From NCBI GenBank assembly GCA_016198755.1, contig JACQIB010000004.1:178760-242759 (forward strand): DNA of 64,000 nucleotides, in the 5' to 3' direction. The notes below the pieces were generated by a model. The model did no database searches. It saw only the letters and a list, made by a program, of their open reading frames with translations, and had not been told where the DNA came from. A program made the translations under genes and the position numbers. Each line of letters opens with the position of its first letter. Within the stretch, counting starts at the first letter, position 1. This stretch comes from Candidatus Aenigmatarchaeota archaeon. GTDB lineage: Archaea; Aenigmatarchaeota; Aenigmatarchaeia; Aenigmatarchaeales; JACQIB01. Below, piece after piece: positions 17,029-63,792 of this stretch.

Positions 17029-17158
17029 TGGTGGACTCGGTGGGATTTTCTCCAAACCCTTTTGGGGTTTGCAAAGACCTTTTCGGAAAAGGGATTTGCT
17101 TTGAACCCACAACCTCTTGCTTGCAAAGCAAGCGATCTTCCAGTTGATCTACGAGCCC
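17029..17158 (-). tRNA. tRNA-Ala(TGC) with T-loop intron at 59/60 (17046-17099); CCA encoded
   Basis: GGGCTCG/CGAGTCC acceptor with G3:U70, anticodon arm CTTGC-TTTGCAA-GCAAG; removing the intron restores GTGGG-TTCAAAT-CCCAC. Confidence 0.92.
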
Positions 17159-17281
17159 ATAAAGTTTGGGTAAATAGTGCTTAAATAGGTTTCATCTATA
17201 CTTTTACATATAATATACAAAAATATATCGTATTTGAGAGACCTTTAAATAGGTTGCTGTTCCACATTTTATACAGGCTAT

Positions 17282-20098
17282 TTGATGAACAAATACATTA
17301 AAATTTTGTCTGCGGTTGTCGTTTTATTGCCATTGCTGTCTGTTGGAGCTTATGCTATGGGCCAAACAGAAGTTACTAGTACAACAATTGATCCAACGAG
17401 ATTCACTGGTATGTCAATTGCTCCGGCATTTGGATCTGATGGAATAACATATTTATCAGACACAACAGACATCTCAGCAGGCGTTTATGTTGGTGTAAAT
17501 GGTGCTGACACAGAAAGCTGTAAATATAGTATAGATGGAGGGAATTCTTGGAACGCTGCAAACTGGAATAGCGATACAGGAGAATGTTATGAAAACAATA
17601 TTGACACAACCAATGCCCAGGAAGCTATACAAATGAGAATAAATGATAGTTCCGGAAATCCAGTTTCAATATCCACAGTTGGAGCAATAGTTGTGGATAC
17701 TACAAAACCAACAACCACAGCCACTGCAGATGGATATGTTTTTGGTACATATGCAAATCAGGATGTTGGAGTTACACTCTCCTGTAATGATGGAGACGGA
17801 AGTGGATGTGATTTAGTAGGGTATAAAATAAGGTATTGCACAGATACTTCAGATTTATGCTTTCCAGATTCACAATATGAAAATCCAGTTGTCATAAGCG
17901 ATGAAGGTATTACGTACATAAGATTCTTTGGCAGAGATTATGTTAGTAATACAGAAGATGTGAAGAGCGAGAAAATAATAATAGACAAAACCATACCACA
18001 GGTATCAAGTGCAGAATCTTCAATGTCAACAATTACTGCAGATAATATTGGGAATACTCTTACAATAACATTAACATACAATGAAGAGATGGATCAGGGC
18101 AGTTCGCCTGTTATAGAAGTGGCAAAAACAGGTGTTGAAGGACCATATTCTCTTGGACTTGAAAACCAGAGAGGCGGATGGACAGATTCTACACACTACG
18201 AGGCAGTTTATGACATTTCCTCTGTTGATGGGGAAGGAAATTATGATGTTAATATAGACTCGGCAAAAGACCTTGCAGGCAATACACAGGAATCAAGCTC
18301 AAATTCAAAATTATTCATGATAGATGCTGCTGCACCATCAACAACAGATGATATGCCTATAGATTCTGGATGGACATCAGGTTCTGTAACTGTAATTTTA
18401 ACAGCTACTGATGATGGTAGCGGTGTGTCTTCTATAAGATACTCAATTGATAACGGGGAGTGGCAAATTGCAGATTTCTTAACTGGCAGAGACAGAGTTG
18501 AACAATCTATAAGCATAGAAGGAGACGGGAATCATTCTCTAACATACTATTCTGTTGATGTTTCAGGAAATCCTGAAGATCCGAAAACAATATATATTGG
18601 AATTGACTCTGCGACACCATCAACATCTGTAACAGGAAATGGGGGGGAATATAATTTTGAGGATTGGAGCAATATACCTGTAACTGTTATGTTATCCTGT
18701 ACAGACGAACCAAATGAGAACGGAAACTCAGGCTGCAACACAATATACTATAGGATGAATGAGGATGATGATGTTACAGAATATACTGGTCCTATATTAT
18801 TTCCTGAAGATGGAACATACACACTATATTATTACAGTACAGACGGTGCTGGAAATTATGAGGATGAACAGGAGACTGATATATACGTAGATAGAACACC
18901 TCCTGTAATTTCTGTTTCAAGCCCAGCCAGCGGCACAACCTATACAGAGAATTCCGTTGAACTCAATTATGAAGTGTCAGATGATTTATCTGGTTTGAAC
19001 CTAAGATCAGAAGTAAGTCCATGTTCATATTCATTGGATGATGGAGAAAATGTAAGTGCTACATGCGGCAAGTCAGTAACATTCTCTGAGCTTTCAAACG
19101 GTATGCATATGCTTACACTCTATGCAACAGATTATGTTGGAAATACAAACAAAAATCCTATATCATTCTATGTTATAGTTCCGCAGGGCAATCAGACAGT
19201 TCCATTCGATGAAAGCATGACTATAGATGGAGATATAAATCAAATAATATTCGCTGCCGGCAGCAATCTAAAAAATGTTATAGTGCCTTCAAACATAGCC
19301 GATGATAAAGAAATATTTATGGATTTCTCCTATATTATGAGCGATGGAAAGATCACGCTCTCAAATGAATTTACTCTTGAGAGGAATTCAGATAACGATT
19401 ATACTGTTACAATACCTTCAGGAACTGTTATAGATGGCGGGGCTTTATGGGAAGGAAATATGAATGTTCCAACTCTGAAGAGTATTTCAGACTATACAGC
19501 ACCATCAGGATCCGTTGATATAGCAATAGATGTTGGAGCTGGGGTGTCTTTGAGTTTCTCAAAAGCAGTAAAGGTTGTAATAGGTGGAATGGCTGGCAAA
19601 AGAGCAGGATGGATTAGTGGAACAGGAGCATTGACAGACATAACAACTCTTTGTGACAGCGTGGATAATCCTACTAATATAGCAGCAGATGGAACAAGAG
19701 AATGCTATATAGATTCTGGTAGCGACCTTGTTATATGGACATATCACTTCACAACATTTGCAGCTTACACTCCATCATCTACAACAACTTCAAATTCCAA
19801 CAGCAATAGCGGAAGCGGTTCATATAATTACTTGGAATCTCCAACAACCACAACACTTCCTCCAGTAGTTCCACCAACAGTACCCGAAACAACAACCACA
19901 CAGGTATCTGAAACTCCAACAAACCCAAGCGAAACAACAACTACAACTTCTACCACAACTACAATAAAACAGGGTCCATCTGGTCTTGCAACAGGATTGC
20001 CAACAAGTACTATAGTATCTGGCGCAGTGGTTTCTATTGCAGTATTACTTGGGTTGGTTTATTTTGGAAGAAATAGCATAAGAAAGAAATTCTTTTAA
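17282..20098 (+). CDS. cell-surface protein with Ig-like repeats, Thr-rich linker and C-terminal TM anchor
   Basis: Signal peptide, repeated D..P.T/YYS.D..GN.E units, TM plus RKKFF tail. Confidence 0.85.
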   Translation: MMNKYIKILSAVVVLLPLLSVGAYAMGQTEVTSTTIDPTRFTGMSIAPAFGSDGITYLSDTTDISAGVYVGVNGADTESCKYSIDGGNSWNAANWNSDTGECYENNIDTTNAQEAIQMRINDSSGNPVSISTVGAIVVDTTKPTTTATADGYVFGTYANQDVGVTLSCNDGDGSGCDLVGYKIRYCTDTSDLCFPDSQYENPVVISDEGITYIRFFGRDYVSNTEDVKSEKIIIDKTIPQVSSAESSMSTITADNIGNTLTITLTYNEEMDQGSSPVIEVAKTGVEGPYSLGLENQRGGWTDSTHYEAVYDISSVDGEGNYDVNIDSAKDLAGNTQESSSNSKLFMIDAAAPSTTDDMPIDSGWTSGSVTVILTATDDGSGVSSIRYSIDNGEWQIADFLTGRDRVEQSISIEGDGNHSLTYYSVDVSGNPEDPKTIYIGIDSATPSTSVTGNGGEYNFEDWSNIPVTVMLSCTDEPNENGNSGCNTIYYRMNEDDDVTEYTGPILFPEDGTYTLYYYSTDGAGNYEDEQETDIYVDRTPPVISVSSPASGTTYTENSVELNYEVSDDLSGLNLRSEVSPCSYSLDDGENVSATCGKSVTFSELSNGMHMLTLYATDYVGNTNKNPISFYVIVPQGNQTVPFDESMTIDGDINQIIFAAGSNLKNVIVPSNIADDKEIFMDFSYIMSDGKITLSNEFTLERNSDNDYTVTIPSGTVIDGGALWEGNMNVPTLKSISDYTAPSGSVDIAIDVGAGVSLSFSKAVKVVIGGMAGKRAGWISGTGALTDITTLCDSVDNPTNIAADGTRECYIDSGSDLVIWTYHFTTFAAYTPSSTTTSNSNSNSGSGSYNYLESPTTTTLPPVVPPTVPETTTTQVSETPTNPSETTTTTSTTTTIKQGPSGLATGLPTSTIVSGAVVSIAVLLGLVYFGRNSIRKKFF

Positions 20099-22063: not shown

Positions 22064-22908
22064 ATTCATGCTAGAAGCTTCGAAAAAGGTTTTATAATAT
22101 TAATCAACTTATACACTGATTGATTAACAAGAACATCATTATATTCTTCCTTTACAATATCTATAGCATCTTTTTGTATATTGCCTTCTAATATTGCTAT
22201 CAATCTTACATAGGGATATTTTTGTCGAATTTTCATAGCTCTATAAGCAAGTTCTACGGCTTGCAAACGTTTCCTATAATTGAAATTCATTTGCTTTACC
22301 TCAATTATTATTTTGGGTATATTTTCAGAAGGCAAGGCAAAATCTACTACAAAATTTCTATTGGTCCTCACTAGGGCATGAAACTTATGTGAAATGCCCA
22401 ATTTCTGAAAGATTTCTATATATCTTTTTTCTTGTTCTGTAGGACCTTTTATTATTGCACCTTTCAGAGATCTTTCTTTAGACGCCTTTAAACTCATTTT
22501 TCTTGCGCGTTCAGTATCTCTAAAAGTGCCGCGTTCGGAAATTTCATAATACCTGCGTATTAAGATTTCCCTAGAAGGAATTCTTTGCATGCATTTAATT
22601 TCTTCAAACACTTTGTTTATTACTTTTTCGTCTACACTTTTTCTAAATCCTTTCTCTATATTATAGACTGTGCCTTGACTCTTCCCTATAAACTTTGCTA
22701 ATTGCCACTGACTCATATTCAATATTAAACGTAGAATCAGCAATCTCTGCGGTTTTGTATATATAATTTCAGGTTTCAGTTTCCTTAAACTGTCTGTTGT
22801 TCTATATACTTCATCACAGAGATTTTTTAATTTTAGCTTGTTTATGGTAATCACCGATATTATATTATATCGGTAACTACTATTTAACCCTTTACAGAGC
22901 TTCTAACT
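22064..22908 (-). mobile_element. 16S intron 6 (845 nt, helix 43 loop) carrying a nuclease ORF
   Basis: Canonical BHB GCGAACG-TCAT-AA|A-GTTAGAAGCT / AGCTTCTAGC-ATGA-AT|T-CGTTCGC. Confidence 0.92.
22066..22854 (-). CDS. intron-encoded XRE-type HTH plus PD-(D/E)XK-like nuclease (putative homing endonuclease)
   Basis: MSQWQLAKFIGKSQGTVYNIEKG (HTH); TEQE..VVDFALP..IIIEVK (nuclease core). Confidence 0.75.
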   Translation of the reverse strand: MITINKLKLKNLCDEVYRTTDSLRKLKPEIIYTKPQRLLILRLILNMSQWQLAKFIGKSQGTVYNIEKGFRKSVDEKVINKVFEEIKCMQRIPSREILIRRYYEISERGTFRDTERARKMSLKASKERSLKGAIIKGPTEQEKRYIEIFQKLGISHKFHALVRTNRNFVVDFALPSENIPKIIIEVKQMNFNYRKRLQAVELAYRAMKIRQKYPYVRLIAILEGNIQKDAIDIVKEEYNDVLVNQSVYKLINIIKPFSKLLA

Positions 22909-23211
22909 TTATGACGTTCGCCTACTATGAATTCCGGCTTCATGTGGGCGAGTTGCAGCCCACAATCTGGACTAAGATTGGGTTTAGGGGGTTAGCTTTG
23001 CCTTTCGGCATTGCATCCCATTGTCCCAACCATTGTAGGACGCGTGTAGCCCAGAGAATTCGGGCCGTACGGACCTACCGTCGCCCACTCCTTCCTCTGC
23101 TTTAGCAGCAGCGGTCCCGCCATTGTGCTCTCTCCCCGGAGGGAAAGGTGGCAAATGGCAGCGTGGGTCTCGCTCGTTAACGGACTTAACCGCACGCCTC
23201 AAGGTACGAGC

Positions 23212-23372
23212 TTTCTCGTCTTAGCAGCCCTCATACAAAACATTATCTTACTTTTCTCTATGTTTTACATAATTAGCATTCCACCAACGTCGTATCAGTA
23301 TTAAGTTTGAATACTGGTTGCATATCGTTGTTGAAATTTTTCAATATCCCAATTAAATTGAGACTGCCAAGA
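23212..23372 (-). other. 16S intron 5 (161 nt, E. coli 1067/1068)
   Basis: Interrupts CGTCA|GCTCG; TCGT/ACGA central helix, inner stem CTTGGCAGTC/GGCTGCTAAG, relaxed 3' side. Confidence 0.85.
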
Positions 23373-23916
23373 TGACGATGGCCATGCAACTCCTCTCAGC
23401 TTGTCTGGTAAACCCGTTAGGCTGACCCTCATTCTGCTGTCTTCTCTGGTAAGATGTCCGGTGTTAAATCCAATTGAACCGCATCCTCCACTCATTGTGT
23501 GTTCCCCCGCCAATTCCTTTAAGTTTCAGCCTTGCGGCCGTACTCCCCAGGTGGCCCGCTTAACATCTACACTTCGGCACTGCATGTTCACGTAGAACGT
23601 GCAACACCAAGCGGGCATCGTTTACGGCTGGGACTACTGGGGTATCTAATCCCAATCGCTCCCCCAGCTGTCGCCCCTCACTGTCAGACTCGTTTTCGGT
23701 AGACGCCTTCGCCACAGGTGGTCCTCCACGGATTAAAGGATTTAACCCCTACACGTGGAATACCTCTACCGTCTCCCGATCTCAAGGCTTGGAGTATCTC
23801 CAGCGCGCCTGACAGTTAGCTGCCAGATTTCACCAGAGACTTTCAAGCCCAGCTACGGGCGCTTTAGACCCAATAAACGCGATAGCCATTTGGACCGCGG
23901 GTATTACCGCGGCGGC

Positions 23917-23947
23917 GTGTGCGAACAAAGTCTACTGACTTTGAACA
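23917..23947 (-). other. 16S intron 4 (31 nt, E. coli 520/521)
   Basis: Interrupts GTGCCA|GCCGCCGCGG; BHB GTGC-CA|T...GCAC-AC|G. Confidence 0.9.
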
Positions 23948-24159
23948 TGGCACCCGTCTTACCCAGTCCTTATTCGCCTAGGTTTTTAGCCTAAGCAAAA
24001 GCTCGTGCAAAGCACGAGCACTCGAGGTTCCCTTCTCACACGCTAATGCATTGGAAAGTTTTCGCTCCTGCTGCGACCCGTAGGCCCTGCGCTCATGTCT
24101 CAGAGCGCATCTGGAGGCTCACACTCTCATGTCCCCTACCCGTCACAGGCTTGTCAGTT

Positions 24160-24220
24160 TTATAAAGCAGGTAGCTTATGCTACCAAAAATTATTTTGGC
24201 AAACTAAGTTTGCCTATGCA
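24160..24220 (-). other. 16S intron 3 (about 61 nt, helix 11 loop)
   Basis: Removal restores GTCAGT-GTAAAGA-ACTGAC; junction uncertain by 1 nt. Confidence 0.8.
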
Positions 24221-24327
24221 CTTTACACTGACAACAACCTGATAGGCCGCAGTCCCATTCTATGGCGCCGGAGCTTTCACTTTTGGTGCATTCCAGCATC
24301 CAAAAACTATGGGGCATTAGCCTCACT

Positions 24328-24356
24328 TTTGCGTTCACTTTCAAAAGAAAGTGGAA
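24328..24356 (-). other. 16S intron 2 (29 nt, helix 8 loop)
   Basis: BHB TGCG-AA|T...CGCA-AA|A; removal restores TCTTGC-GAAA-GTGAGG. Confidence 0.88.
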
Positions 24357-24402
24357 TTCGCAAGATTATTCCCCACCATAGAGTAGGTTAACTACGTGTT
24401 AC

Positions 24403-25074
24403 TCAGCAGTGCGCCGAGGGCAAGAGCGGATTAAATAGAACCTTACCAGTCTTTTTACAATAAAAATAGTTTTTAAATTCCTTAGAAAGACATCTTACTT
24501 TTTCTAACTTTAGTGGATGTTTAAATTTTATTATTCTACAAAACTTTCTAAAATTTTTAGCACCTTTTATTCGCCACCAATATACATCGTTTTTTCCATA
24601 AACTTTTGATACATGAATACCATATGTTTCTAATAATTCTTTACTCCATATGCAAAAATCCTTAGATTTAATTTGTAGTTCTATTACAGGATATTCATAT
24701 ATAGACATCATGGTCTTTCTCTTATACCTTTGGACTTCTTTGAATACGGAACAATCACCATCAAAAAATCCTATAAGAAAATTCATCTTTTCTTTTCTAT
24801 TTATGTGCACTGGTGGAGTGATGTCATGAGACTTTTTCCCTGGTTTTATATGATAAAGTCTCTTAAATTTTTCGTATAGCTTACGATCACTTACCCTTAT
24901 CTGAAATACTCTTTTTCTTAATTTGTAAGTAACCTTGTTTTTTGCAAATTTTTGAAGATTTTTTACTATATCATCTCTGAAGCGCTTGTTATTTGTGTAG
25001 ACATAGACATACGGTCTATATTTTTCTAAATGACCATCTGCAGCTATTAAACCGGCCATATAAGAAAATTTCAT
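24403..25074 (-). CDS. intron-encoded double-motif LAGLIDADG homing endonuclease
   Basis: YMAGLIAADG and FLIGFFDGDC motifs; linear stop lies in the downstream exon. Confidence 0.9.
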   Translation of the reverse strand: MKFSYMAGLIAADGHLEKYRPYVYVYTNNKRFRDDIVKNLQKFAKNKVTYKLRKRVFQIRVSDRKLYEKFKRLYHIKPGKKSHDITPPVHINRKEKMNFLIGFFDGDCSVFKEVQRYKRKTMMSIYEYPVIELQIKSKDFCIWSKELLETYGIHVSKVYGKNDVYWWRIKGAKNFRKFCRIIKFKHPLKLEKVRCLSKEFKNYFYCKKTGKVLFNPLLPSAHC

Positions 25075-30541: not shown

Positions 30542-30701
30542 TGGGGCCCGGACCGAGATTTTCCCGCCCCACCTGAGGGGGTAGGGCTGTAGGGGGAAAC
30601 TTCCCCCTGAGCTTTGAACTCGGGTCTAGGGCTGTCTGCTCCGCACGCCTTAAGCGCGCTGGGCCACAGGCCCACATGCTAACCACTACACCATCCGGGC
30701 C
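30542..30701 (-). tRNA. tRNA-His(GTG) with introns at 37/38 (30634-30663) and 59/60 (30559-30612); G-1 and CCA encoded
   Basis: G-GCCCGGA/TCCGGGC-C-CCA; BHB CTGT-GG|C...GCAG-AC|A. Confidence 0.92.
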
Positions 30702-44371: not shown

Positions 44372-44396
44372 GTTTGGTTTATTTTAGAAAATAGTT

Positions 44397-44580
44397 TGGT
44401 GCGGGAGGCAAGATTTTCAGCCCTTTTGGGGTTTGCAAAGACCTTTTCGGAAAAGGGATTTGCTTTGAACTTGCGTAGGGACTAACCCACTAGGTTTCTC
44501 ATGCAGGTCTCTGAGCAACGCCTGCTCCTAAGCTTCGCTTAAATCATCTAGCGCCTTTGACCTGGCTGGGCCACTCCCGC
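44397..44580 (-). tRNA. tRNA-Leu(CAG) with introns at 30/31 (44517-44547), 37/38 (44496-44509) and 59/60 (44414-44463)
   Basis: GCGGGAG/CTCCCGC acceptor, long variable arm; splicing restores CTAGG-CTCAGAA-CCTAG. Confidence 0.9.
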
Positions 44581-44613
44581 AAGAAAAGTATAGGGCAGAA
44601 GGTAATAAAAGCC

Positions 44614-44892: not shown

Positions 44893-44933
44893 GCGGAAAT
44901 AAGGGTAGAGAAGGTATAAAAGCGTTTTGCAGC

Positions 44934-45272: not shown

Positions 45273-45309
45273 GTGAGAAGTTATGATATAAACAAGATAA
45301 ATATGTGTC

Positions 45310-46080: not shown

Positions 46081-46153
46081 ACTATCACCAAAATCATAAC
46101 ATGATCTTATGATATTGTAATGTTTAAATACCTAACGGACCACTGTTCTAGAT

Positions 46154-48972: not shown

Positions 48973-49005
48973 GGGTACGGTAAACTTATAAGCGTTCCAC
49001 CATTT

Positions 49006-49965: not shown

Positions 49966-49966
49966 A

Positions 49967-51199: not shown

Positions 51200-51310
51200 T
51201 CAACTGTTGTGCGGAACGTTTATAAATCATATACGTATACAACGGATTTCAGGCCAAGAACTTCTGACCTGTCATTATAGGTATTTATATTCTAGATATG
51301 GCTGATTGGA

Positions 51311-51775: not shown

Positions 51776-51816
51776 CAGTATTTATACTATCTGTTTTAAT
51801 TGGTATTCTGACTTTT

Positions 51817-53046
51817 ATGCCAACATTAAAAGAGAATGCGCTAGTTTATCATAAGAAAGGAAAGCATGGTAAATTGGAAGTGCGGGGAACAAAGCCTGCG
51901 CGCACAATGAAAGATTTGAGCTTAGCTTACACTCCGGGAGTTGCTGAGGTTTGCAGGGCAATAGTTGAAAATCCTGAGAGAGTTTATGACTATACAATAA
52001 AGGGGAACTGCATAGCTATCCTAACTAATGGAACAAGAGTTTTGGGATTGGGAAATATTGGGCCCAGCGCAGGGCTGCCTGTAATGGAAGGGAAGGCGTT
52101 AATTTACAAACTGCTGGGGGGTGTAGATGCTTTCCCTGTTTGCATTAAAGCTGATTCCGTGGAAGAATTTATTGCAGTTGCAAAAGCACTGGAACCTACT
52201 TTTGGTGGTTTTAATTTGGAGGATATACGCTCTCCAGACTGCTTTGATATTGAAAGAACACTGGAAAATGAGCTGGGTATACCAGTTTTCCATGATGACC
52301 AGCATGGGACTGCTGTTTCTGTCTGCGCTGCCCTGATAAATGCATTAAAAATTATTGGAAAGGATTTTGCTGATGTGAAAATTGCAATAAGCGGAGCCGG
52401 AGCTGCAGGGTTGGCTGTTACAAAGCTTTTGAACTCTGGCTTTGGAGCCAGAAAAATTGTTGTATGTGACAGTAAGGGTATAATTTTTCCCGGAAGGGAC
52501 AATTTAACAGAGGATAAGAATGAAATTGCTATACTTACTGCACCCAAAGAACGCGGTGGACTGAAAGAAGCCATGAAAGGAGCTGATGTTTTTATTGGTC
52601 TATCTTCCGGAGGCATTGTTTCTTCCCAGATGGTAATCTCTATGGCTTCACAGCCAATAATTTTTGCGCTTGCAAACCCTGTACCTGAGATTTCCCCAGA
52701 AGAAGCAAAAAAATCAGGAGCCTATATAGTTGGAACAGCAAGGGCTGATTATCCAAATCAAGTAAACAATTCTGTTGCTTTTCCAGGAATTATGAGAGGT
52801 CTGCTTGACTGTAATGCAAGAAAACTTAACATGGAAATAAAGGTAGCTGCTGCCCGCGCAATTGCTGGCTGTGTGAAGAAACCTACAGTAAATAATATTA
52901 TTCCAACTTCTCTCGACAAAACTGTTGCTCCTAAAGTGGCTGCAGCTGTTGTAAGCGCAGCTCAGGATAGTGAGGTTGCGAGGAGAGGAATAAAAGATTT
53001 GAAACAATATGAAGCAGAAGTTAAGAAACGCATATCATCTGGCTAA
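51817..53046 (+). CDS. NAD(P)-dependent malic enzyme
   Basis: LAYTPGVA, MEGK, HDDQHGTA, GAGAAG, ANPVPE. Confidence 0.95.
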   Translation: MPTLKENALVYHKKGKHGKLEVRGTKPARTMKDLSLAYTPGVAEVCRAIVENPERVYDYTIKGNCIAILTNGTRVLGLGNIGPSAGLPVMEGKALIYKLLGGVDAFPVCIKADSVEEFIAVAKALEPTFGGFNLEDIRSPDCFDIERTLENELGIPVFHDDQHGTAVSVCAALINALKIIGKDFADVKIAISGAGAAGLAVTKLLNSGFGARKIVVCDSKGIIFPGRDNLTEDKNEIAILTAPKERGGLKEAMKGADVFIGLSSGGIVSSQMVISMASQPIIFALANPVPEISPEEAKKSGAYIVGTARADYPNQVNNSVAFPGIMRGLLDCNARKLNMEIKVAAARAIAGCVKKPTVNNIIPTSLDKTVAPKVAAAVVSAAQDSEVARRGIKDLKQYEAEVKKRISSG

Positions 53047-55283: not shown

Positions 55284-55349
55284 ATACCAGAATTTGCTGT
55301 TTGGAATATAAGCTTTATATGACCGGTTTTTTCCTGTCTATTTTGACAT

Positions 55350-56492
55350 TTACGTCTTGAACCATGTACTATGTTGGGTGGGAGGAGCAGCATTATCTGA
55401 AACCATTGTTACCACTAACCTTGTATCCACTTTTCTAGGCACATCCAGCGATATTTTATACCAACCGCTTCCAGCAGACTCTATATCCAGCGGAGCGCTA
55501 TATTTCTGGCTATATACCTTATTTGGATCTGAAGTTTCAAAAGCCACATAAACCTTTGTGTTCAGAGCTGTTTCTGAGCCCTCATTTGATACATTGACAG
55601 TTATAAGATAGTTAACTTTTTTACTGTCATAACTCACTGACTTTGCAGTCCATTCAAAAGTTAGATAGGGCTTGGCTATCAGAGGCAATACCTCAACCTT
55701 TTGGTCCTTGTATTCCTTTGGTATTTCCCCTATTTTCCAGTTATCTCCGGTTGTTTCAAGATAATAATATTTTTTTCCTTTGAACTCATAGTATGTTCCG
55801 GATTGGCTTTCTAAATTTACGCCGACAGCCATGTGTCTGGGCGGGGATATCATAACAACATCATATCCCATTTCCTTGAGAAGTACAGATGTCAATATAG
55901 CAGTGTCCTCACAGTCCCCGCCATTATCCCAGAGTGTTTCATATGGATATCTCTGATATTCATCAAACCCTGTAGTTACATTGTCTGAAGTGTATGGCAG
56001 ACTTTGAACAAAAGAAATTACAAAATTTATAGTATCGCGGTCATTATATCCTTCCCCTGAAGCTGACTGTTTAAATAATTCAACAATAGTCCGTATTAGT
56101 TCATCATCATAAGGGTCTGTTGCATATGTTGTATATTCATCTGTCCTTTTCTTGGATTTATAGAAATTATAGGTATCTTCTGACAAAGTCAGATCCCAGG
56201 TCCAGTCATTCCCATTAAAGTCTGTCCAGTTAAAATGCCTTACAACTGTACCATTCGCAGGTGCTGGTTGAGTTGTTGTTGTAACCGGAATGTTTACCAT
56301 TGTTGTGGTTGTTGTAGAAGTTGTTGTGGTCGAAGTGGTAGTAGAAGTTGTGGAAGTTTCAACTACTTCCTCTGTGGTAGTTGTTGTCCCTCCATCTCCG
56401 CCAGAATTTGTGTTGTCATAATCATTTGAGCTCTGATCCACACAGCCGGCAACAAAAACAGCCAAAATAAGGATAGCTATTATTTTTTTCAT
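55350..56492 (-). CDS. lipoprotein with transglutaminase-like Cys protease domain
   Basis: VAGC, FVQSLPY, GDCED, HMAVG, YLETT. Confidence 0.85.
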   Translation of the reverse strand: MKKIIAILILAVFVAGCVDQSSNDYDNTNSGGDGGTTTTTEEVVETSTTSTTTSTTTTSTTTTTMVNIPVTTTTQPAPANGTVVRHFNWTDFNGNDWTWDLTLSEDTYNFYKSKKRTDEYTTYATDPYDDELIRTIVELFKQSASGEGYNDRDTINFVISFVQSLPYTSDNVTTGFDEYQRYPYETLWDNGGDCEDTAILTSVLLKEMGYDVVMISPPRHMAVGVNLESQSGTYYEFKGKKYYYLETTGDNWKIGEIPKEYKDQKVEVLPLIAKPYLTFEWTAKSVSYDSKKVNYLITVNVSNEGSETALNTKVYVAFETSDPNKVYSQKYSAPLDIESAGSGWYKISLDVPRKVDTRLVVTMVSDNAAPPTQHSTWFKT

Positions 56493-56616
56493 ATATTATT
56501 ACCTCTCACGCTCTTTTAGACTGTCTATTTTTCTTTGTTTAGAATATAAGGCTTCCTTTGCCTGAAAAACAGGAAGGGATTTAAAGGTTTATCTCCTAAC
56601 TGTTCTCAGTGATAAA

Positions 56617-57222
56617 ATGGAGAAAGGCTTAAGACATTCTCTGGGAACAGCGGCTGGTTCAAACATTAGGGTGGTATTGGGTTGGAAGACAATATTTGAT
56701 ACGAATGTTTCTTATGGGCTTTTTGACCTTTCCAGATATGGAGTACATGGAACAGCTTATGTTTTAAGGGCAGTTTTAATAGGAGATGGAAGATATGAAA
56801 TTGGAAAGGTTGAGACCTACCTAACAGATAAAGGCCCTGTTGTCAGGAACATTGAAAGAACAATACCATTTGGAGCAAGGAACGCCGTTGCGGCGCCGCT
56901 GGTTTCCATTTGCAATGGAGCCGCTATGGTTTATTTGCCTGATGCAGACCAGTTTGACGGGAATGGAAAACCAAGAAATCCTATTTTATATAATGCACCA
57001 ACACTTTCACATATGCCTCCGGGAGGCATTGCTGTTTTTGAAAACCCTGAGAAAAGGAAACTTTCGGATTTTTTTGACGGTCCCCATTGTTTAGATCCTT
57101 CTAATCTTTCAGGACCCAGAATAATGACTGTCAAAACAGAAGAACTTGAAAGACTGCCCGAAATAAAACCGATGGGGGATGTAACTCTGTTCAGAGCTTT
57201 TCAAGAAGCTGTTGTTTTCTAG
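56617..57222 (+). CDS. hypothetical protein
   Basis: 201-aa ORF, no motif. Confidence 0.6.
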   Translation: MEKGLRHSLGTAAGSNIRVVLGWKTIFDTNVSYGLFDLSRYGVHGTAYVLRAVLIGDGRYEIGKVETYLTDKGPVVRNIERTIPFGARNAVAAPLVSICNGAAMVYLPDADQFDGNGKPRNPILYNAPTLSHMPPGGIAVFENPEKRKLSDFFDGPHCLDPSNLSGPRIMTVKTEELERLPEIKPMGDVTLFRAFQEAVVF

Positions 57223-57240
57223 AACTTTATTATACTTCCC

Positions 57241-58551
57241 TCAGGAAACCACTTTTCTTATTTCCTTGGTTAAAACTCCCTCATTCTGGATTTCAATCCA
57301 GTAGCGCACGCGAAAAGCTGGTTTGTTTATTTTTATCAGTTTCTGCAGGTTTATTGGAGTGCCTACAATAACAGAATCGCAGTGAGCAGAATTAATTGTC
57401 TTTTCCAGCTCTTTTAGCTGTTTAGGATAATAGCCCATTGCAGGCAGTACTTTTCCGAGCTGAGGGAATTTTTTATAGATGGCTTTCAGTGAACCTACAG
57501 CATGTTTCCTTGGATCTACTATTTCCAGCCCCAAAGAACGTGCAGCTGAAAAAGCAACTCCAGTATTCATTCCCCCATGGGTTAAAGTTGGCCCGTCCTC
57601 TATGCAAATCACCTTACCCTTTGGCTTTCCATCTATACTGAAAGGCATGCATGCAAATAAAATTTTAGCACTCGGATTTATTGCTTTAATATTCTTTTTC
57701 ACTGTTTTTGCGGCTTCTGCTGTATTTTTATCAACCTTGTTTATTAGAACAATATCAGCCATTCTTGCACAAGCTTCCCCTGGATAATAGCTTATCTCAT
57801 GCCCAGGCCTCTTTGCATCTGCAACTGTTATTGTTAAGTCAGGTTTATAGAAAGAAAAATCATTGTTCCCCCCATCCCATACTATAACATCAGCCTCTTT
57901 CTCAGCAGCTCTCAGTATCTTTTCATAGTCAACGCCAGCATAAACAACTGTTCCTCTTTCTATATGCGGCTCATATTCTTCCCTCTCTTCAATGGTTGTA
58001 TTGTACCTTTTTAGGTCAGCAAAGTTTGAGAAGCGTTCAACCTCTTCCTTTTCAAGCCTGCCATAAGGCATTGGATGGCGTATAACAACAGGCTTCAATC
58101 CAAAGGATTTTATAATATCCACAACCCTGCGGGAGAGCGGACTTTTTCCAGAACCTGTGCGTACAGCACACACAACAATAACAGGCTTTTTGCTTTCCAG
58201 CATGGTTTCCTCAGGCCCCAGCAGTGAAAAGCTTGCACCAGCAGCTAAAACAATTGAAGCTTTCCTCATTACATCTGTATAGTTAAGGTCTGAATAACAT
58301 AGAAAAACCTCCTTCACTCCAAACTTTTTTATTAGCTCAGTTAACTTTGATTCATCGTATATTGGTATTCCTTTCCTGTATAGTTTTCCTGAAAGTCTTG
58401 GAGGATAACACCTGTCTGTTATATCAGGTATCTGGGCTGCTGTGAACGCAACAACATTATAGGCTTTATTCCCGCGGAAGAAAACATTAAAGTTATGGAA
58501 GTCCCTTCCAGCTGCCCCCATTATTATTACAGGCTTTCCATGTTTTTGCAT
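57241..58551 (-). CDS. P-loop NTPase of the cyclic 2,3-diphosphoglycerate synthetase-like family
   Basis: MGAAGRDFHNFN, RTGSGKS, RHPMPYG, WDGGNND, EDGPTLTHGGM. Confidence 0.85.
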   Translation of the reverse strand: MQKHGKPVIIMGAAGRDFHNFNVFFRGNKAYNVVAFTAAQIPDITDRCYPPRLSGKLYRKGIPIYDESKLTELIKKFGVKEVFLCYSDLNYTDVMRKASIVLAAGASFSLLGPEETMLESKKPVIVVCAVRTGSGKSPLSRRVVDIIKSFGLKPVVIRHPMPYGRLEKEEVERFSNFADLKRYNTTIEEREEYEPHIERGTVVYAGVDYEKILRAAEKEADVIVWDGGNNDFSFYKPDLTITVADAKRPGHEISYYPGEACARMADIVLINKVDKNTAEAAKTVKKNIKAINPSAKILFACMPFSIDGKPKGKVICIEDGPTLTHGGMNTGVAFSAARSLGLEIVDPRKHAVGSLKAIYKKFPQLGKVLPAMGYYPKQLKELEKTINSAHCDSVIVGTPINLQKLIKINKPAFRVRYWIEIQNEGVLTKEIRKVVS

Positions 58552-58610
58552 AATAGATATTGCACAGCTGGAATAAAAACTGCATTCATTGACTGTGCAA
58601 TGAATATTAC

Positions 58611-59636
58611 TCAGCAATAACAGCCGTACGGACCTCTACCACATGATACGCAGCTGTTGGATGAGCATCTTTTACAGCCTGAGCATTGGGAATCAGTTGT
58701 GCATTCAACATCCACACACTTTTTGTTGCTGCAAATTTGCTTGTAGCCGCAATCTGATTTGGAGCTGCACTCTTCCGAAGAAACAGTAGTAGTTGTGGCT
58801 TTTGTTGTGGTTGTTGCAGAGATTGTGGTTGTTGTGGGTGGTTTATATTCAAATGTCTGAATGTTAGCTTCGAAAGAAAGTTTAGAGGATTCTTTCCCTG
58901 ATGAGTCTGCAGCAACAGCACTAAACTGAACTATTCCGCTCTCATTCGAAGTAAATATCCAAGTATTAGAGCAGGGTTTTTTATTGTTGCAGTCAAAGGA
59001 GCCTGACTGACCATAGTTTTGAATTGGCTTTGAAGATGTCCACGATATACTCTTGATTGCCCTGTCATCGTTGGCATCGATTGTTAAATTAAATGGTTGT
59101 CCGCGGGCTGGGTTGGAAGGACTCATGCTTCCTTTAATTGTTGGAAACTCGAGATCTGGAGTTACTGTAGAAGCTGGAAGAGTAGTTGTAGAAGATGCGG
59201 GGAATGTGGTTGAAGATATTGTAAATGCGGCAGTTGTTGGAACCAGTGTTGTAGTTGTCTCTACTGGAATTGACTGCGGCTTCTGGTTTATTGCTTCCCT
59301 GACCATGCAAACTGTTTCTAAAGATGCAGAATTTGTCCAGACTGTTAGCTTTGTGTTTGAATCTGGATCTGTCAAGACTGTTTTGTAATAGCTGTATAAT
59401 TTGACATCATTGTTATCGCACTGTTCCCTTATCTGTTCTAGCTGTCCGGAAATAGAATCGTTGCCAAGAAGGTTTGTTGTTAATTTAGCATTAGGATACT
59501 CAGCAAGGAATGCCTTTACTTGAGGGCTGGATTTTACAAGAGAGTCTACTCCAAAGCTCTGGCCTGTACAACCTGCAGCTATAACTACTATTAAAAACAC
59601 GGAAGCGCATAGCAGCGCTAACCTGCTGGAAAACAT
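58611..59636 (-). CDS. lipoprotein with Thr-rich linkers, Ig-like domain and Cys-rich tail
   Basis: IAAGC lipobox; ECSSKSDC..C..C repeats. Confidence 0.75.
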   Translation of the reverse strand: MFSSRLALLCASVFLIVVIAAGCTGQSFGVDSLVKSSPQVKAFLAEYPNAKLTTNLLGNDSISGQLEQIREQCDNNDVKLYSYYKTVLTDPDSNTKLTVWTNSASLETVCMVREAINQKPQSIPVETTTTLVPTTAAFTISSTTFPASSTTTLPASTVTPDLEFPTIKGSMSPSNPARGQPFNLTIDANDDRAIKSISWTSSKPIQNYGQSGSFDCNNKKPCSNTWIFTSNESGIVQFSAVAADSSGKESSKLSFEANIQTFEYKPPTTTTISATTTTKATTTTVSSEECSSKSDCGYKQICSNKKCVDVECTTDSQCSGCKRCSSNSCVSCGRGPYGCYC

Positions 59637-59693
59637 AAGAATAATTTATTTCAGCTTATATAAATAGAAATCGTCTGGTGAGGTTACATTATT

Positions 59694-60320
59694 TTACAAA
59701 CTGGCAGGAGCAACTCTTCTGCCAAATAAAGTGCCTCTGCGATGCTTTTTAAGAAACGGTGTAGGATAAGACAAAAGCCATGGCTCCCTTGTTTCACTAA
59801 AGTTCCAGAGAAGGACTGTATAATCTGTTTTGCCATCAGGTGATGGATCATGGACTGCAGCTTCATCAGCACCAAGTGCTTCCCTCCATTCTGGCGTTAT
59901 TTTATCTCTAGCTTTCGGAGTTTTCAGTACAACAGGAGTTAATCCACTGATATCAAATTTTCCTCCCACGAATATTGCTCCCCTATAAAGCTCTGTATTA
60001 CCCTGTCCATCAGGCTTGCATAGCTCAGCAAAAATACAGTTTTTCAACATCCCTTGATACAGTTCTTCAAATGCCTGAGCCAAATTAGCTTCTGAAAATA
60101 TATCTGTAATAAGCCTCGGGTTTGCACCGTATCTAATAAGAGCAGAATAGTTTGGCCTGTCTCTTTTCAGGCTGCGCAAAACAGCATTTATAGAAAGTGA
60201 AGGATCTATCGGAACTCTTTGTGGATCTGAATAAGAGTGTATATCATTCCAGGAACTGCCGCTCATACCAACAGCAAGTTCCACAGCTCCGGCACCAGGA
60301 ATATCAGCAAATACTGGCAT
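59694..60320 (-). CDS. hypothetical protein
   Basis: 208-aa ORF with upstream TATA. Confidence 0.6.
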   Translation of the reverse strand: MPVFADIPGAGAVELAVGMSGSSWNDIHSYSDPQRVPIDPSLSINAVLRSLKRDRPNYSALIRYGANPRLITDIFSEANLAQAFEELYQGMLKNCIFAELCKPDGQGNTELYRGAIFVGGKFDISGLTPVVLKTPKARDKITPEWREALGADEAAVHDPSPDGKTDYTVLLWNFSETREPWLLSYPTPFLKKHRRGTLFGRRVAPASL

Positions 60321-60367
60321 GCAATCAAAAGTAAATGGTTAGAAAAAGGATTTATATAGGTAAAAAT

Positions 60368-60559
60368 TGGTGCGCCAGCCGAGATTTTCCAGCAAGAAAG
60401 GGACTTTCCCTTACCGCCAACCAAAGGGGGTTAATAGGGCGGTAAGAAGGGGTCTCCCCTTCTTGCGCTTTGAACTCGGGTCGCGAGCTTTCTGCGCTGC
60501 GCGTGGCAAGCATATACCTTGCAAAGCAAGATCGTATCCTACCACTAGACTACTGGCGC
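60368..60559 (-). tRNA. tRNA-Gly(GCC) with introns at 29/30 (60512-60531), 37/38 (60490-60503) and 59/60 (60385-60468)
   Basis: GCGCCAG/CTGGCGC acceptor; splicing restores CGAGC-TTGCCAA-GCTCG. Confidence 0.9.
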
Positions 60560-61208
60560 GTTATTTAAGATTGAGAGTCTATATTTATAAGTGCTATAAG
60601 GTGGTAGATAACCTAATTTTTCTAACACATCCAACTTTGATTTCTGAATAGGATTTAATATTGGCACAAGTTTTATAAAACTGTACAATCTATTACCCTT
60701 TATTGTTATATGATATACATTTTCAAGTTTTCTGTAATGTATATGATAACTGATATTGTTTTTAGAGAGAAATCTTGAGATAATATCTATAAGAACCTTG
60801 GAGGCGCTAACATATGTCATAAGGGGGTACTTATTAATATTGTTCCCGTTTTTACTTATTATAATAGAGCCGTCTCCAGATATCAAACCTGCAATAAAAC
60901 TCTTTTCTTCTATATTGCATTTAGGTTCTTCTATATTTTTATGCTTTTTGCCTTTATATGGAAAGATTGATCTAAATATTTTTTCTATTTTTGATGAGTT
61001 AATAGATAAAACATAATTTCTCTTTATATCATGCCGTAAAGTTGTTTTACAATTAAAAACCTCTGCTATCATAGGCGCTATTATATTTTCAAAAAAAAGG
61101 GCGTTCCTCTTCAGAACAAAAGAATCTGACTCTTGATATATCTAAGTTGCCATCTGAAGCAAAGAGTCCTAATATAAAAGATAATTTATCTACTTGAATT
61201 TCTTCCAT
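60545..61208 (-). pseudogene. free-standing double-motif LAGLIDADG endonuclease split by a +1 frameshift in a T8 run
   Basis: FILGLFASDG in the ATG(61208) frame, FIAGLISGDG in the next frame; CCT TTT TTT TGA near 61089-61100. Confidence 0.8.
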
Positions 61209-61308
61209 ATGTTGAAATTATTATTCACGCTCTTTTATATAGGCTTCGGCTGCCTTGTTGACAAGCATAGACAGCATATTTTTAACCTTTAGCCTACAAC
61301 CCTTCTGA

Positions 61309-62088
61309 ATGCCAGAATCGGAATTTAAAGGAGGAGCTTTCGAGAAGGCGCAGGAAAGGGGGCAGAAGATTAAGGAAAAGCTCGGGAAAATAAAAAAGAA
61401 GATTGCAGTTTACAGCGGGAAAGGTGGTGTTGGGAAGACGATGGTTGCTGTGAACCTTGCTGCTGCGCTGGCTAAAAAAGGATTTTCTGTTGGATTGCTG
61501 GATGCTGATATAGACTGCCCGAATGTTTTCCGCTCTCTTGGGTTGGAAAGCAAAGGAGCTGAAGTGGATGAGAATGGAGATTTTGAGCCTGAAAAAAAGT
61601 TTGGGATAAAAATTGTTTCTGTTTCCCCTTTCCAGAAATCTGAGGAAGAGGCAACAGTCTGGAGGGGACCGCTGATTGCAGGGGCTTTAGTACAGTTGGT
61701 AGAGCATTCAAAATTTGGGGAGCTTGACTATTTAGTTATAGATCTGCCTCCGGGTACCTCAGATTCCCCTTTAACAGTAATGCAGGTTTTGCAGCCTGAT
61801 ATGTTTGTTATCGTAACAACTCCGCAGAAACTGGCTGTGCTCGATGCTAAAAGGTCTGCTAACATGGTTAAAAGGTTGGGAATGAAAATTGCTGGAGTGG
61901 TAGATAATATGGTTTCAGAGGAATTTGGGAAGGATAGCAGGCTGACAGAAGAGCTTGGAGTTCCACTGCTTGCCTCAATTCCGCTGAAAAAAGAGATAAG
62001 AGAAGCTGCAGACAATGGAATTCCGGCTGTTCTGGAAGATAAGGAGCTTGCGCTGTTATTTTCTAATATAGTGGAGAAGATAATTTAA
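61309..62088 (+). CDS. Mrp/ApbC/NBP35 family ATPase
   Basis: SGKGGVGKT, LDADIDCPN, WRGP, DLPPGTSD, VTTPQ. Confidence 0.92.
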   Translation: MPESEFKGGAFEKAQERGQKIKEKLGKIKKKIAVYSGKGGVGKTMVAVNLAAALAKKGFSVGLLDADIDCPNVFRSLGLESKGAEVDENGDFEPEKKFGIKIVSVSPFQKSEEEATVWRGPLIAGALVQLVEHSKFGELDYLVIDLPPGTSDSPLTVMQVLQPDMFVIVTTPQKLAVLDAKRSANMVKRLGMKIAGVVDNMVSEEFGKDSRLTEELGVPLLASIPLKKEIREAADNGIPAVLEDKELALLFSNIVEKII

Positions 62089-63575
62089 GAAACATTAAAG
62101 TCCTTTGAGTCTATATTATTGTTTTCATTTGTTTCAGCTATTTGCATGTCAGAATCAGCGAAAACTCTTACCGTGTATGTACCTGCAGAGGGCATTGTTT
62201 TTGTGCAGGTTCCAGAGACCATAGAGCCAGCATTCAATGCAGTATTAGATGTGCAGCTGTCTATTGGGTTAGGATTAGGCGCCTGATAAAAGCCCACATC
62301 TATCTTAGATGTACCCGAGTTTCCGGCGCCAGTGTTCGAAACACTCCAAGACGCTGAAGCACTTCTGCCAGATATGCTGGGTGCCTGAATAGAGGATGTA
62401 AAGTCAACCGTACTCGGTTGCGTTGTCGTGGTTGTTGTAGTTGTAGATGTTGTAGTAGTTGAAGTAGAAGTTGTTGTAGTTGAAGAGGTGTTTGGTTGAT
62501 CAGCACAAAATCCACTAAAGCAGAAATTACTAGAGCACTCTGAATTGCTCGAACAGCTTTGTCCCTTTGCTTTTAGGCCTGCAGCAGTTGTGGTTGTGGT
62601 TCCACCTGCTGTGGTTGTAGTGCTTGAGGTTGTTGTCTGGCTTTGTACAGGAAGAGAAGTATCAATATTTTCATTTGTAACATTATTATCAATTTCATTG
62701 GTTTCTGGTATAAGCCAATCTGGATCAGCTACAGCTCCGGCAGCATATTTATGCCCTAAAACATACCCCTGAGAAGGATACAAGTAACAGAATGTCCTCT
62801 GAGTTGAACCCACTTCTAAGAGCGGAGTTATATAAGTGCAGTTGGAAAGCATACCATGTTCTGCTATAGCCATTAACATACTTGCATTGGTAGCTGGTTT
62901 ATCTCCTATGTTCCTAAGAGAATATTTTATCCTTAATACAGAAGCATCATAGAATATTTCATCTATGCCTGGAACAAGATTAGGACCGCTTGATAGAATA
63001 GGTACTGTTATTGGTGTTTGACCTGGGACCGATGGAGTTCCTGGAGCAGATGGAGTTCCACCGCTACCGCCAGAGCCTCCGCCTCCGTTTACACCGGAAG
63101 AAAATCTGCCTGGTGTATCATCTGCACAGTATCCAGCTGAACAGAAGGTAGTGGAACATTCTGAATCAGCTGAACATTTATCCCCTTTGGCTTTGGGTCC
63201 TGGAGACATAGTAGAAGTGCTAACTAAATCTGAATTTTTCACAACAACCTCTATCTTTCCTTCAGCCGTTATTTTACAGACTGTACTTCCTATATCATTT
63301 ACCCAGACTGTTGTGGAGCTGTTTGATACGGAATCAGAAAGTGAAACTTTCCAGTATCTTGGTTTTTTCACAACATCCGGACAACCTGATAATATTTCTT
63401 CATATAGAGAAGGAGCTGTTATATTGTTTACCAGTTCAATTCTAACAGTTGCATTAGGATGAAGTGACTTAAAGCCAAAAACATCAGCATTTATTTTTAT
63501 AAAATCCTCTATGCTTTGGCTTACACAAGCTGCTGCAAAGACAACCAGAAAAATTGCTAACAACCAAAATCTCAT
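62085..63575 (-). CDS. lipoprotein with two CARDB domains and two Cys-rich repeats
   Basis: AAAC lipobox; KAKG..CS..SECS..FC..G.CAD twice; ETNE.NN twice. Confidence 0.82.
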   Translation of the reverse strand: MRFWLLAIFLVVFAAACVSQSIEDFIKINADVFGFKSLHPNATVRIELVNNITAPSLYEEILSGCPDVVKKPRYWKVSLSDSVSNSSTTVWVNDIGSTVCKITAEGKIEVVVKNSDLVSTSTMSPGPKAKGDKCSADSECSTTFCSAGYCADDTPGRFSSGVNGGGGSGGSGGTPSAPGTPSVPGQTPITVPILSSGPNLVPGIDEIFYDASVLRIKYSLRNIGDKPATNASMLMAIAEHGMLSNCTYITPLLEVGSTQRTFCYLYPSQGYVLGHKYAAGAVADPDWLIPETNEIDNNVTNENIDTSLPVQSQTTTSSTTTTAGGTTTTTAAGLKAKGQSCSSNSECSSNFCFSGFCADQPNTSSTTTTSTSTTTTSTTTTTTTTQPSTVDFTSSIQAPSISGRSASASWSVSNTGAGNSGTSKIDVGFYQAPNPNPIDSCTSNTALNAGSMVSGTCTKTMPSAGTYTVRVFADSDMQIAETNENNNIDSKDFNVS

Positions 63576-63618
63576 AAATATAGATAGGTGCTTTGTATAT
63601 AAAACTTTGTTCTTATAT

Positions 63619-63792
63619 TGGCGCCGGCGGCAGGATTTTCAGTCCACCCAAAGGGAGAGGGTGGAGGGAGATACGCAGTTTCTCCTCCTTTGAACCTGCA
63701 TGCCCTTGCGGACACCAGTTATCTCTCTTTCTCTACCTTTCAAAGAAAGGCTGTTCGAGACTGGCACGATAACCTGGCTCTGTCACACCGGC
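63619..63792 (-). tRNA. tRNA-Ser(CGA) with introns at 37/38 (63721-63753) and 59/60 (63636-63688)
   Basis: GCCGGTG/CGCCGGC-G-CCA, long variable arm; splicing restores CCAGT-CTCGAAA-ACTGG. Confidence 0.9.

Follow-up and report, generated by a model that had tools for sequence, protein, structure and literature searches.

A tRNA T-loop site that is probably occupied by families of protein-spliced introns in an Aenigmatarchaeota archaeon

Interrupted tRNA genes of the window

The stretch of DNA considered here (the window) comprises 64,000 nt of contig C2, positions 178760–242759, from a Candidatus Aenigmatarchaeota archaeon (assembly GCA_016198755.1). The genome, labelled G000 below, consists of 890,842 bp in 6 contigs with a G+C content of 40%, and is 89% complete as judged from marker genes. 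Five tRNA genes in the window, for alanine, histidine, leucine, glycine and serine, are each interrupted in the T-loop between positions 59 and 60 (Table 1). These inserts are probably protein-spliced archaeal tRNA introns with a relaxed bulge-helix-bulge (BHB) junction of the hBH form that have been copied between tRNA genes.

An earlier sequence-only reading of the window had proposed these five genes, with inserts of 54, 54, 50, 84 and 53 nt in the order given above and with common ends of the form TTCAAA/G...GAAAA/TC. Pattern counts and ARAGORN analysis confirm both the lengths and the ends. The pattern TTCAAAG..GAAAATC with a gap of 40–70 nt occurs four times in the window against a mean of 0.11 in shuffled sequence, and none of 100 shuffles contained four or more; one more occurrence is found with a gap of 70–100 nt. 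Each of these sites is on the minus strand and within a tRNA T-loop. In its plain mode ARAGORN called none of the five genes, and the only match among them in an Rfam scan of the window was a partial one to the Ala gene. Once the inserts were removed in silico, ARAGORN produced a tRNA call at all five sites. The exons are intact in each gene, with five of five T-stem pairs, seven of seven acceptor stem pairs and an encoded CCA. The genome-wide tRNA inventory contains no sixth tRNA gene in the window.

The exon sequence TTCA can pair with the 3′ part of each intron. As had been read from the sequence, all four pairs of this helix can form in Leu and Ser (4/4), whereas Ala, His and Gly each have a single mismatch (3/4). 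The side-by-side hairpins proposed for the intron bodies are seen in minimum-energy folds. The Ala and Leu introns have a common body with 43 of 50 nt identical contiguously, while the His, Gly and Ser bodies are distinct, within the window, from this body and from each other.

Table 1. Interrupted tRNA genes and introns of the window (positions in the 64,000-nt stretch). The isotype of the Leu gene was taken from the earlier reading and from exon similarity to Leu genes, with the anticodon left unassigned. Coordinates of the second introns of His and Ser derive from the deletion index of an ARAGORN single-deletion scan, which is permissive.
Feature	Position	Strand	Remarks
tRNA-Ala(UGC) gene	17029..17158	-	CCA encoded; T-loop intron is the sole insert; ARAGORN Ala(tgc) after removal; partial Rfam match
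Ala 59/60 intron, 54 nt, family A	17046..17099	-	TTCA helix 3/4; folded
tRNA-His(GUG) gene	30542..30700	-	CCA encoded; two introns; ARAGORN
His 59/60 intron, 54 nt, family B	30559..30612	-	42-nt core identical in 5 copies
His second intron, 30 nt, at or near 37/38	30634..30663	-	Deletion 37..67 gives His(gtg); helix 4/4, outer helix 4
tRNA-Leu gene, class II	44397..44580	-	CCA encoded; T-loop intron and a further insert of ~43 nt, unparsed
Leu 59/60 intron, 50 nt, family A	44414..44463	-	Helix 4/4; fold = T-stem, 3-nt bulge, 4-bp helix, two hairpins
tRNA-Gly gene, anticodon most likely GCC	60368..60559	-	CCA encoded; T-loop intron and a further insert of ~29 nt; exon 7-24 same as in other Gly genes
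Gly 59/60 intron, 84 nt, family D	60385..60468	-	97% identity over 66 nt with the Trp T-loop intron
tRNA-Ser(CGA) gene	63619..63792	-	CCA encoded; two introns; ARAGORN
Ser 59/60 intron, 53 nt, family C	63636..63688	-	Helix 4/4
Ser second intron, 33 nt, at or near 37/38	63721..63753	-	Deletion 39..72 gives Ser(cga)

Genome-wide tRNA census

A census of the whole genome was assembled from ARAGORN with introns allowed, the Rfam tRNA model at loose thresholds, T-stem and acceptor-stem scans with an encoded CCA, BLAST searches with the window introns, and reading by eye. It recognised 40 tRNA genes, 24 with a 59/60 insert and 16 with an intact T-loop (60% interrupted), a list that may be incomplete since several expected anticodons are unaccounted for. 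As for the suggestion that a single site has been invaded throughout the genome, that site is interrupted in 24 of the genes and uninterrupted in the other 16. Inserts of any kind are pervasive. At least one further insert is present in 20 of the 24 genes with a T-loop intron, only 5 of the 40 genes are free of inserts (counting two 10-nt introns called by ARAGORN), and the mean tRNA gene length is 144 nt. The 24 introns at 59/60 range from 12 to 103 nt.

As in the window, the exons of all 24 genes retain a fully paired T-stem (5/5), a fully paired acceptor stem (7/7) and the CCA. Removal of the T-loop insert led to an ARAGORN call at 19 sites, and 5 further sites were read by eye. The single-copy essential tRNAs for His, Trp, Tyr, both Lys and Ile all carry a 59/60 intron; the interrupted genes must therefore work. 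Rfam finds only 11 strong tRNA matches in the whole genome. Two ARAGORN calls, a Glu gene (C5 162498) and a Trp gene with a 2196-nt intron, were judged to be false.

Several genes have unusual features of their own. Two near-identical genes with a GGGCCGG acceptor strand (C1 55789–55948 on the plus strand and 68563–68732 on the minus strand) have discriminator A and read as the serine anticodons GGA and UGA, yet their variable region is short and their body class I, unlike the three class II Ser genes. Both tRNA-Glu(CUC) (C3 17644–17827, minus strand) and tRNA-Leu(GAG) (C5 115577–115740, plus strand) contain an insert at 53/54, between the T-stem and T54, of 33 nt and 20 nt respectively, next to the 59/60 intron.

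Architecture of the splice junction

A common architecture can be proposed for the precursors. The 5-bp T-stem would stack on a 4-bp helix in which exon bases U54-U55-C56-R57 pair with an NGAA sequence close to the intron's 3′ end, and the splice sites would lie in the flanking bulges, at A58 A59/G on the 5′ side and at A A/U60 on the 3′ side. The 5′ bulge would be made of two exon bases and the first intron base. The 3′ bulge, abutting the stem, would consist of the last two intron bases and U60, or 3 nt in all. A two-subunit EndA would cut this structure and RtcB would join the exons. Because the exon strand of the helix, U54-U55-C56-R57, is almost invariant in tRNAs, an intron with an ...NGAA-AA tail could form the splice motif in any tRNA, and one intron body would fit all of them; the shared ends and the single site would follow from this. 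No particular selection has to be invoked for the shared ends, which consist of two bulge bases together with the strand that would pair with U54-U55-C56.

The pairs U54-A, U55-A and C56-G are kept in 23 of the 24 introns while the fourth pair varies, and 23 of the 24 start with G. The copies agree exactly at the 5′ junction and vary in their 3′ tails. Counted over all four pairs, the helix is complete in 13 introns and has three pairs in 10 and a single pair in one. Nine junctions of this genome were folded, and the 4-bp helix on the T-stem was part of the minimum-energy structure in five (Leu, Gln, Tyr, a GGGCCGG gene and the 12-nt intron), as well as in an intron of the related genome G009. 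A 3-nt bulge separates the helix from the 5-bp T-stem in the Leu, Gln, Tyr, GGGCCGG-gene and G009 folds but not in that of the 12-nt intron. In these models the 3′ bulge at the T-stem is 3 nt, and the 5′ site falls at a 2-nt bulge or a junction. An inner helix in strict register has only 0–3 bp. The intron bodies fold with energies of -14 to -47 kcal/mol.

The junction resembles that of the canonical BHB intron at 37/38. In both, a 5-bp stem carries a 7-nt loop whose sixth and seventh bases flank the intron, and loop bases 1–4 pair with the intron's 3′ end in a 4-bp helix. What sets them apart is the exon strand, which at 37/38 includes the anticodon and varies from tRNA to tRNA, and at 59/60 is the near-universal UUCR. 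Introns of the type described here were also found at 37/38 in two cases in related genomes, with the anticodon loops TTCGGG and TTCGCA, both of which start with UUC. As a lead from these two cases, the pairing rule may admit the introns into T-loops everywhere and into anticodon loops only if they begin with UUC.

Intron families

When local identities among all 24 T-loop introns were compared, 22 fell into four families, and the introns of 12 nt and 13 nt stood alone. Family A has 5 copies, in the genes for Ala, Leu, Thr-CGU and Ser-UGA and in one GGGCCGG gene. Family B has 7, in His, Gln, Ile-GAU, Ile-UAU, Lys-CUU, Ser-GCU and Arg-GCG, the Arg copy carrying an extra 49-nt insertion. The 7 copies of family C are in Ser-CGA, Gly-CCC, Tyr, Lys-UUU, Arg-CCU, Leu-GAG and the other GGGCCGG gene, and the 3 copies of family D are in Gly, Trp and, as a 34-nt short form, in C2 88186–88310. 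Median identity within the families is 87–98% and the minimum pairwise identity 79–90%. When the four families were compared with each other, no real similarity in sequence and no common fold beyond the ends was found. The bodies had been described as unrelated except for Ala and Leu. This stands within the window and gives way, genome-wide, to four families of 5, 7, 7 and 3 copies; the bodies looked unrelated because the window holds just one or two members of each family.

The hosts of a family differ in isotype and in T-stem sequence. All four families exceed 70% similarity in tRNAs of different isotypes, the level by which transposed groups were defined by Fujishima in 2010. In the two GGGCCGG paralogues the exons are identical (34/34 and 17/17), yet one carries a family C intron and the other a family A intron. 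Only three of the 25 family copies lie outside T-loops. The family B core is found, with different ends, within a D-loop intron of tRNA-Glu(CUC), one family B fragment is intergenic, and a family C fragment is located 55 nt upstream of a Leu gene. The T-loops amount to a few hundred bases of the 891-kb genome, yet they hold the other 22 copies. Contigs built from four DNA sequencing runs over positions 44000–63990 of the window end at the introns, as is expected of repeats, and among them there was no contig that skipped exactly one intron and so no intron-less allele.

With the T-loop introns masked, the only other shared sequence outside the exons was that of an anticodon-region intron in Trp (C5 99342–99559) and in C3 21851–21980 (31 nt, 94% identity). 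The masked comparison also returned the family B core, in Arg-GCG and the D-loop intron of Glu(CUC), by way of the partly unmasked Arg intron.

An islet of 1,034 bp with a G+C content of 31% adjoins tRNA-Ser(UGA) (C3 245726–246819) and contains an open reading frame of 314 aa belonging to the Fic/DOC family (E = 7e-19). No integrase was found within the islet. On both sides it is bounded by a perfect 30-bp direct repeat, of which 17 nt come from the very end of the family A intron and 13 nt from the 3′ exon. Since this repeat includes the 3′ end of the intron, the recombination at the islet used a gene that already had its intron.

Splicing enzymes

EndA is encoded by two adjacent genes (C1 37748–38807) whose products, of 173 aa and 178 aa, each have both EndA domains. 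The 178-aa protein most closely resembles the Nanoarchaeum equitans catalytic subunit and has the catalytic Tyr and His. Between these two residues it has an N. equitans-like insert where the Methanocaldococcus jannaschii protein is gapped. In the part of their paper that is accessible, Kaneta et al. link loop L3 of EndA to tRNA gene disruption in DPANN archaea (PMC5829648), and the alignment suggests that the insert of the 178-aa protein may correspond to this loop. Typing of the EndA subunits, one of the checks that had been proposed, thus pointed to a two-subunit enzyme with an N. equitans-like insert, a type that has been associated in print with non-canonical introns. Relatives of EndA are encoded in 148 of 191 candidate stretches, and the best 80 of the 148 come almost entirely from metagenome bins named 'Candidatus Aenigmatarchaeota'.

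RtcB is encoded as well, as identified by a profile match. The match (C5 42797–45628) is in two pieces, covering profile positions 1–50 and 48–426, which lie ~1.4 kb apart in one 1,010-aa reading frame. The gene looks as if it is interrupted by an intein. In the window itself, the archaeal 16S rRNA gene (22842–24467, minus strand) spans 1,626 nt against a model of 1,478 positions. Inserts of ~30, 62 and 39 nt are present in the part of the alignment shown and could be either spliced introns or expansion segments.

Introns of related genomes and their turnover

Across the order, 41 genomes, the present one among them, were scored for strong matches to the tRNA model. They have between 3 and 54 each, and the present genome has 11. 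G009, which is 98% complete, has 4, while G001, G010, G015 and G028 have 40–43; in all, 20 of 40 related genomes have no more than 20. Two relatives were examined further: G002, from another genus of the same family, over nearly the whole genome, and G009, from another family, over 310 kb. In G002, 21 tRNA genes have a 59/60 intron and 16 an intact T-loop (~57% interrupted), these counts being what remained of 32 and 18 rows after those with no tRNA-like 5′ end were dropped by eye. The G009 segment has 6 genes with the intron and 2 with an intact T-loop.

Most introns of G002 belong to one family of ~71 nt that can be aligned with family A, and the orthologous Ala(UGC) genes of both genomes carry it. 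In an alignment of 20 introns (family A and G002), 92.8% of the cells pair in the proposed structure, against 79.3% after shuffling and 28–67% when the partner is slid by 1–3 columns. In the first hairpin, 5 of 13 pairs have changed on both sides with pairing kept, across two genera, although these counts are not independent of relatedness and are inflated by it. The covariation that the sequence-only reading had asked for is therefore present, in a helix beside the splice site. Because this hairpin abuts the splice site, its conservation can be explained by splicing alone.

A covariance model built from the same alignment was searched over 42 genomes of the order. It matched 5 times in G000, 20 in G002, 31 in G006, once in G003, 3 times each in G024 and G011, and once in G016. 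Besides the genera of G000, G002 and G006, three more genera thus have a small number of matches. Of seven matches that were inspected, five are 59/60 introns with the hairpin, an A-rich linker and a GAAAA tail, and two are at 37/38. For family B, a BLAST search of the His T-arm and intron against 40 relatives returned exon pieces only (G011 and G003).

Orthologous genes of the two genera frequently differ. Six genes with an intron in G000 have an intact T-loop in G002 (both Lys, Trp, Tyr, Arg-GCG and Gly-CCC), and the reverse is seen in at least two, with orthologues matched by eye from the first 24–26 nt and the T-stem. G006 and G002 belong to one genus; the Trp gene is interrupted in the former, and in the latter the intron is precisely absent. 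In Ser-GCU, Gly-GCC, Ile-UAU and Gln, the intron belongs to family B or D in G000 and to the A-like family in G002. From these sequence comparisons the intron bodies appear to come, go and be swapped at one fixed bond, with gain and loss not to be distinguished without a tree, and introns appear to have been copied among tRNA genes whose orthologues in relatives carry another family or none. A T-loop intron of 173 nt in G002 (C4, minus-strand offset 405747) appears to join two families, its 5′ part being A-like and the remainder of the type found in a different tRNA of G002, and may be an intron within an intron.

The copying may take place at the DNA level, with the short conserved flanks in the T-arm serving for recombination, a step that is proposed with low confidence. 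The accessible text of a review likewise supposes a DNA-level process for intron movement (PMC4090602). No match to the reverse transcriptase family PF00078 was found in this genome, which, at 89% completeness, argues weakly against an RNA route. With AAA at either end of the introns, a target-site duplication was considered and was rejected by eye from the loops with TTCGAA.

Evaluation of the proposal and of its alternatives

That the inserts would be spliced is suggested by the intact exons, the kept pairing, the encoded enzymes and the ARMAN-2 precedent described below, and the description of them as non-canonical 59/60 introns of relaxed BHB form is in this respect supported. Several observations weigh against the proposal. 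The helix has a mismatch in 10 of the 24 introns and is out of register in Ile-UAU, and the minimum-energy folds of family D and of His contain no short helix. The 5′ splice site is at a multi-helix junction without a clean 3-nt bulge; such a substrate is relaxed, and its cleavage by EndA is assumed. Neither EndA subunit has a Lys in the column of M. jannaschii Lys156, where RKK is replaced by RAN in the 178-aa protein, giving Ala in the catalytic column, and by KSV in the 173-aa protein, which also lacks the His. Splicing, circles and mature ends are putative; no RNA run is listed for window positions 59000–64000. The inflation of the covariation counts and the matching of orthologues by eye, as noted above, count on the same side. 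Lastly, the near-identity of the copies could reflect gene conversion among old introns with no new insertions.

This last point can be extended to a reading in which the 59/60 introns are old and vertically inherited, their likeness has been kept by conversion, and no new sites have been invaded. The constancy of the site across three taxonomic families of the order would agree with it, as would the homology of family A with the main G002 family in the shared orthologous Ala(UGC) gene, and conversion tracts with one fixed end could yield both the exact 5′ junction and the varying 3′ tails. It is nevertheless unlikely, as the G000 and G002 orthologues differ in intron presence in both directions and Trp differs inside one genus; G001, a member of the same family with 41 full tRNA matches, has no match to the covariance model; the family B core occurs also in a D-loop intron and at an intergenic spot; and other genomes have the intron type at 37/38. 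More tentative than the proposal of copied introns, and rather unlikely as a whole, is the idea that the introns are selfish mobile RNAs with no gene of their own, whose GAA tail targets any 5-bp stem with a 7-nt loop that begins with UUC. These would spread by reversed EndA/RtcB splicing into pre-tRNAs and would then be copied into DNA. It is hardly credible that the tRNA genes have been broken by a small repeat element, leaving them dead and the tRNAs to be taken from a host. DPANN members are often host-dependent, and the copies do act as repeats at which contigs from the DNA runs break. On the other hand, there is no exon decay (T-stem, acceptor stem and CCA are complete in 24 of 24), 23 of 24 keep the pairing needed for splicing, the insert is at exactly the same bond every time, EndA and RtcB are retained, the T-loops hold 22 of the 25 family copies, and terminal inverted repeats were not seen by eye.

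The remaining alternatives concern what the introns might be for. The excised, possibly circular, intron RNAs could have a job of their own, such as that of a guide or regulatory RNA, with the T-loop a mere host site. Their structured bodies (-14 to -47 kcal/mol), the compensatory changes that keep hairpin 1 in two genera, and the recurrence of hairpin, A-rich linker and tail in three taxonomic families of the order are in keeping with such a role. It is still quite improbable. The four families lack a common sequence or fold beyond the ends, introns of 12 nt and 13 nt occupy the same site without any body, and splicing suffices to explain a conserved hairpin that abuts the splice site. The window introns have no Rfam match at E values up to 1, which with the lengths of 12–103 nt gives no sign of a self-splicing group I or group II core, which would take hundreds of nucleotides. 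Nor was a C/D-box guide of the Haloferax tRNA-Trp type found: box C (RUGAUGA) is absent from all 24 introns, and the box D sequence CUGA is present in nine of the 24, in eight of these within the 3′ pairing strand. The sequence-only reading had raised as a possibility the selection of the introns as a shield, in that they break up the tRNA 3′ half used by integrating viruses and plasmids, a hypothesis of Randau and Soll for archaeal tRNA introns (cited in the available text of PMC4090602). The 59/60 site is inside the region used by integrases. However, the intron is absent from 16 of the 40 tRNA genes, and at the Fic/DOC islet recombination took place in an intron-bearing tRNA-Ser(UGA), with a repeat that includes 17 nt of the intron. 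The shield is thus unsupported and very unlikely here, the islet being a single case with no survey of integrases or proviruses behind it.

Comparison with known systems

The nearest precedent for the proposed introns is that of ARMAN-2 (Ca. Micrarchaeum). According to the accessible portion of Fujishima et al. 2011 (PMC3239211), a 13-nt hBH intron at 59/60 of its pre-tRNA-Cys(GCA) is cut in vitro, and its pre-tRNA-Pro(GGG) has introns at both 53/54 and 59/60. As far as that portion goes, the two systems share the site, the relaxed hBH junction, the minimal lengths (13 nt there, 12 and 13 nt here), and the combination of a 53/54 insert with a 59/60 intron, which here is seen in Glu(CUC) and Leu(GAG). 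Both hosts belong to the DPANN archaea and have an EndA of broad specificity, predicted here from its type. The difference is that ARMAN-2 is described with introns in single genes and an epsilon2 enzyme, whereas in the present genome 24 of 40 genes have them, mostly at lengths of 50–84 nt and in multi-copy families, together with a two-subunit EndA.

In Thermoproteales, similar introns in distinct tRNAs have been read as transposition (PMC4090602 and PMC4033280, in their accessible parts, citing Fujishima, Sugahara, Tomita and Kanai 2010). To judge from these sources, the two lineages have in common highly similar introns in evolutionarily distinct tRNA genes, sites limited to BHB-capable places, many multi-intron genes and an enzyme of heterotetramer type, which here is predicted from the two EndA genes. 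The present genome is from a different phylum and from a groundwater metagenome, and one site dominates rather than many. One family reaches 20–31 model matches per genome in the relatives G002 and G006. For Asgard archaea, the available part of a preprint (bioRxiv 10.64898/2026.10.13.758758) describes tRNA genes that are mostly interrupted, repeated gains at BHB-competent sites, and introns often missed by annotators. Most tRNA genes are likewise interrupted here and many introns are missed by standard annotators. Unlike the Asgard case, for which that part gives no general route of arrival and no general copying between genes, the copying here is plain from the near-identical families.

No paper on the tRNA introns of Aenigmatarchaeota was found, though the subscription papers Sugahara 2008 and Fujishima 2010 and various supplements were outside reach and may hold statistics on 59/60. 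Both the kind of intron and the idea of copying between tRNAs are already known. Relative to the accessible literature, what is new is the lineage, the dominance of one site (60% here and ~57% in G002), the size of the families (up to 31 matches) and the pairing rule.

Implications

The low yield of standard tRNA finders has a practical consequence for these genomes. Because plain ARAGORN called none of the five genes in the window, Rfam has 11 strong matches in the genome, and 20 of 40 relatives have 20 or fewer, it is a minority of the tRNA genes that such programs see, and tRNA counts and estimates of completeness are biased.

The mechanism by which tRNA introns arrive in archaea is called unknown in reviews (PMC4090602, in the part available). 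With one site, a pairing rule, large near-identical families, and presence and absence within a genus, this lineage offers a clean system for the study of intron arrival. Were the introns to be mobile RNAs that spread by reversed splicing, they would represent a protein-spliced counterpart of group II retrohoming that has come to occupy as many as three quarters of the tRNA genes of some Aenigmatarchaeota.

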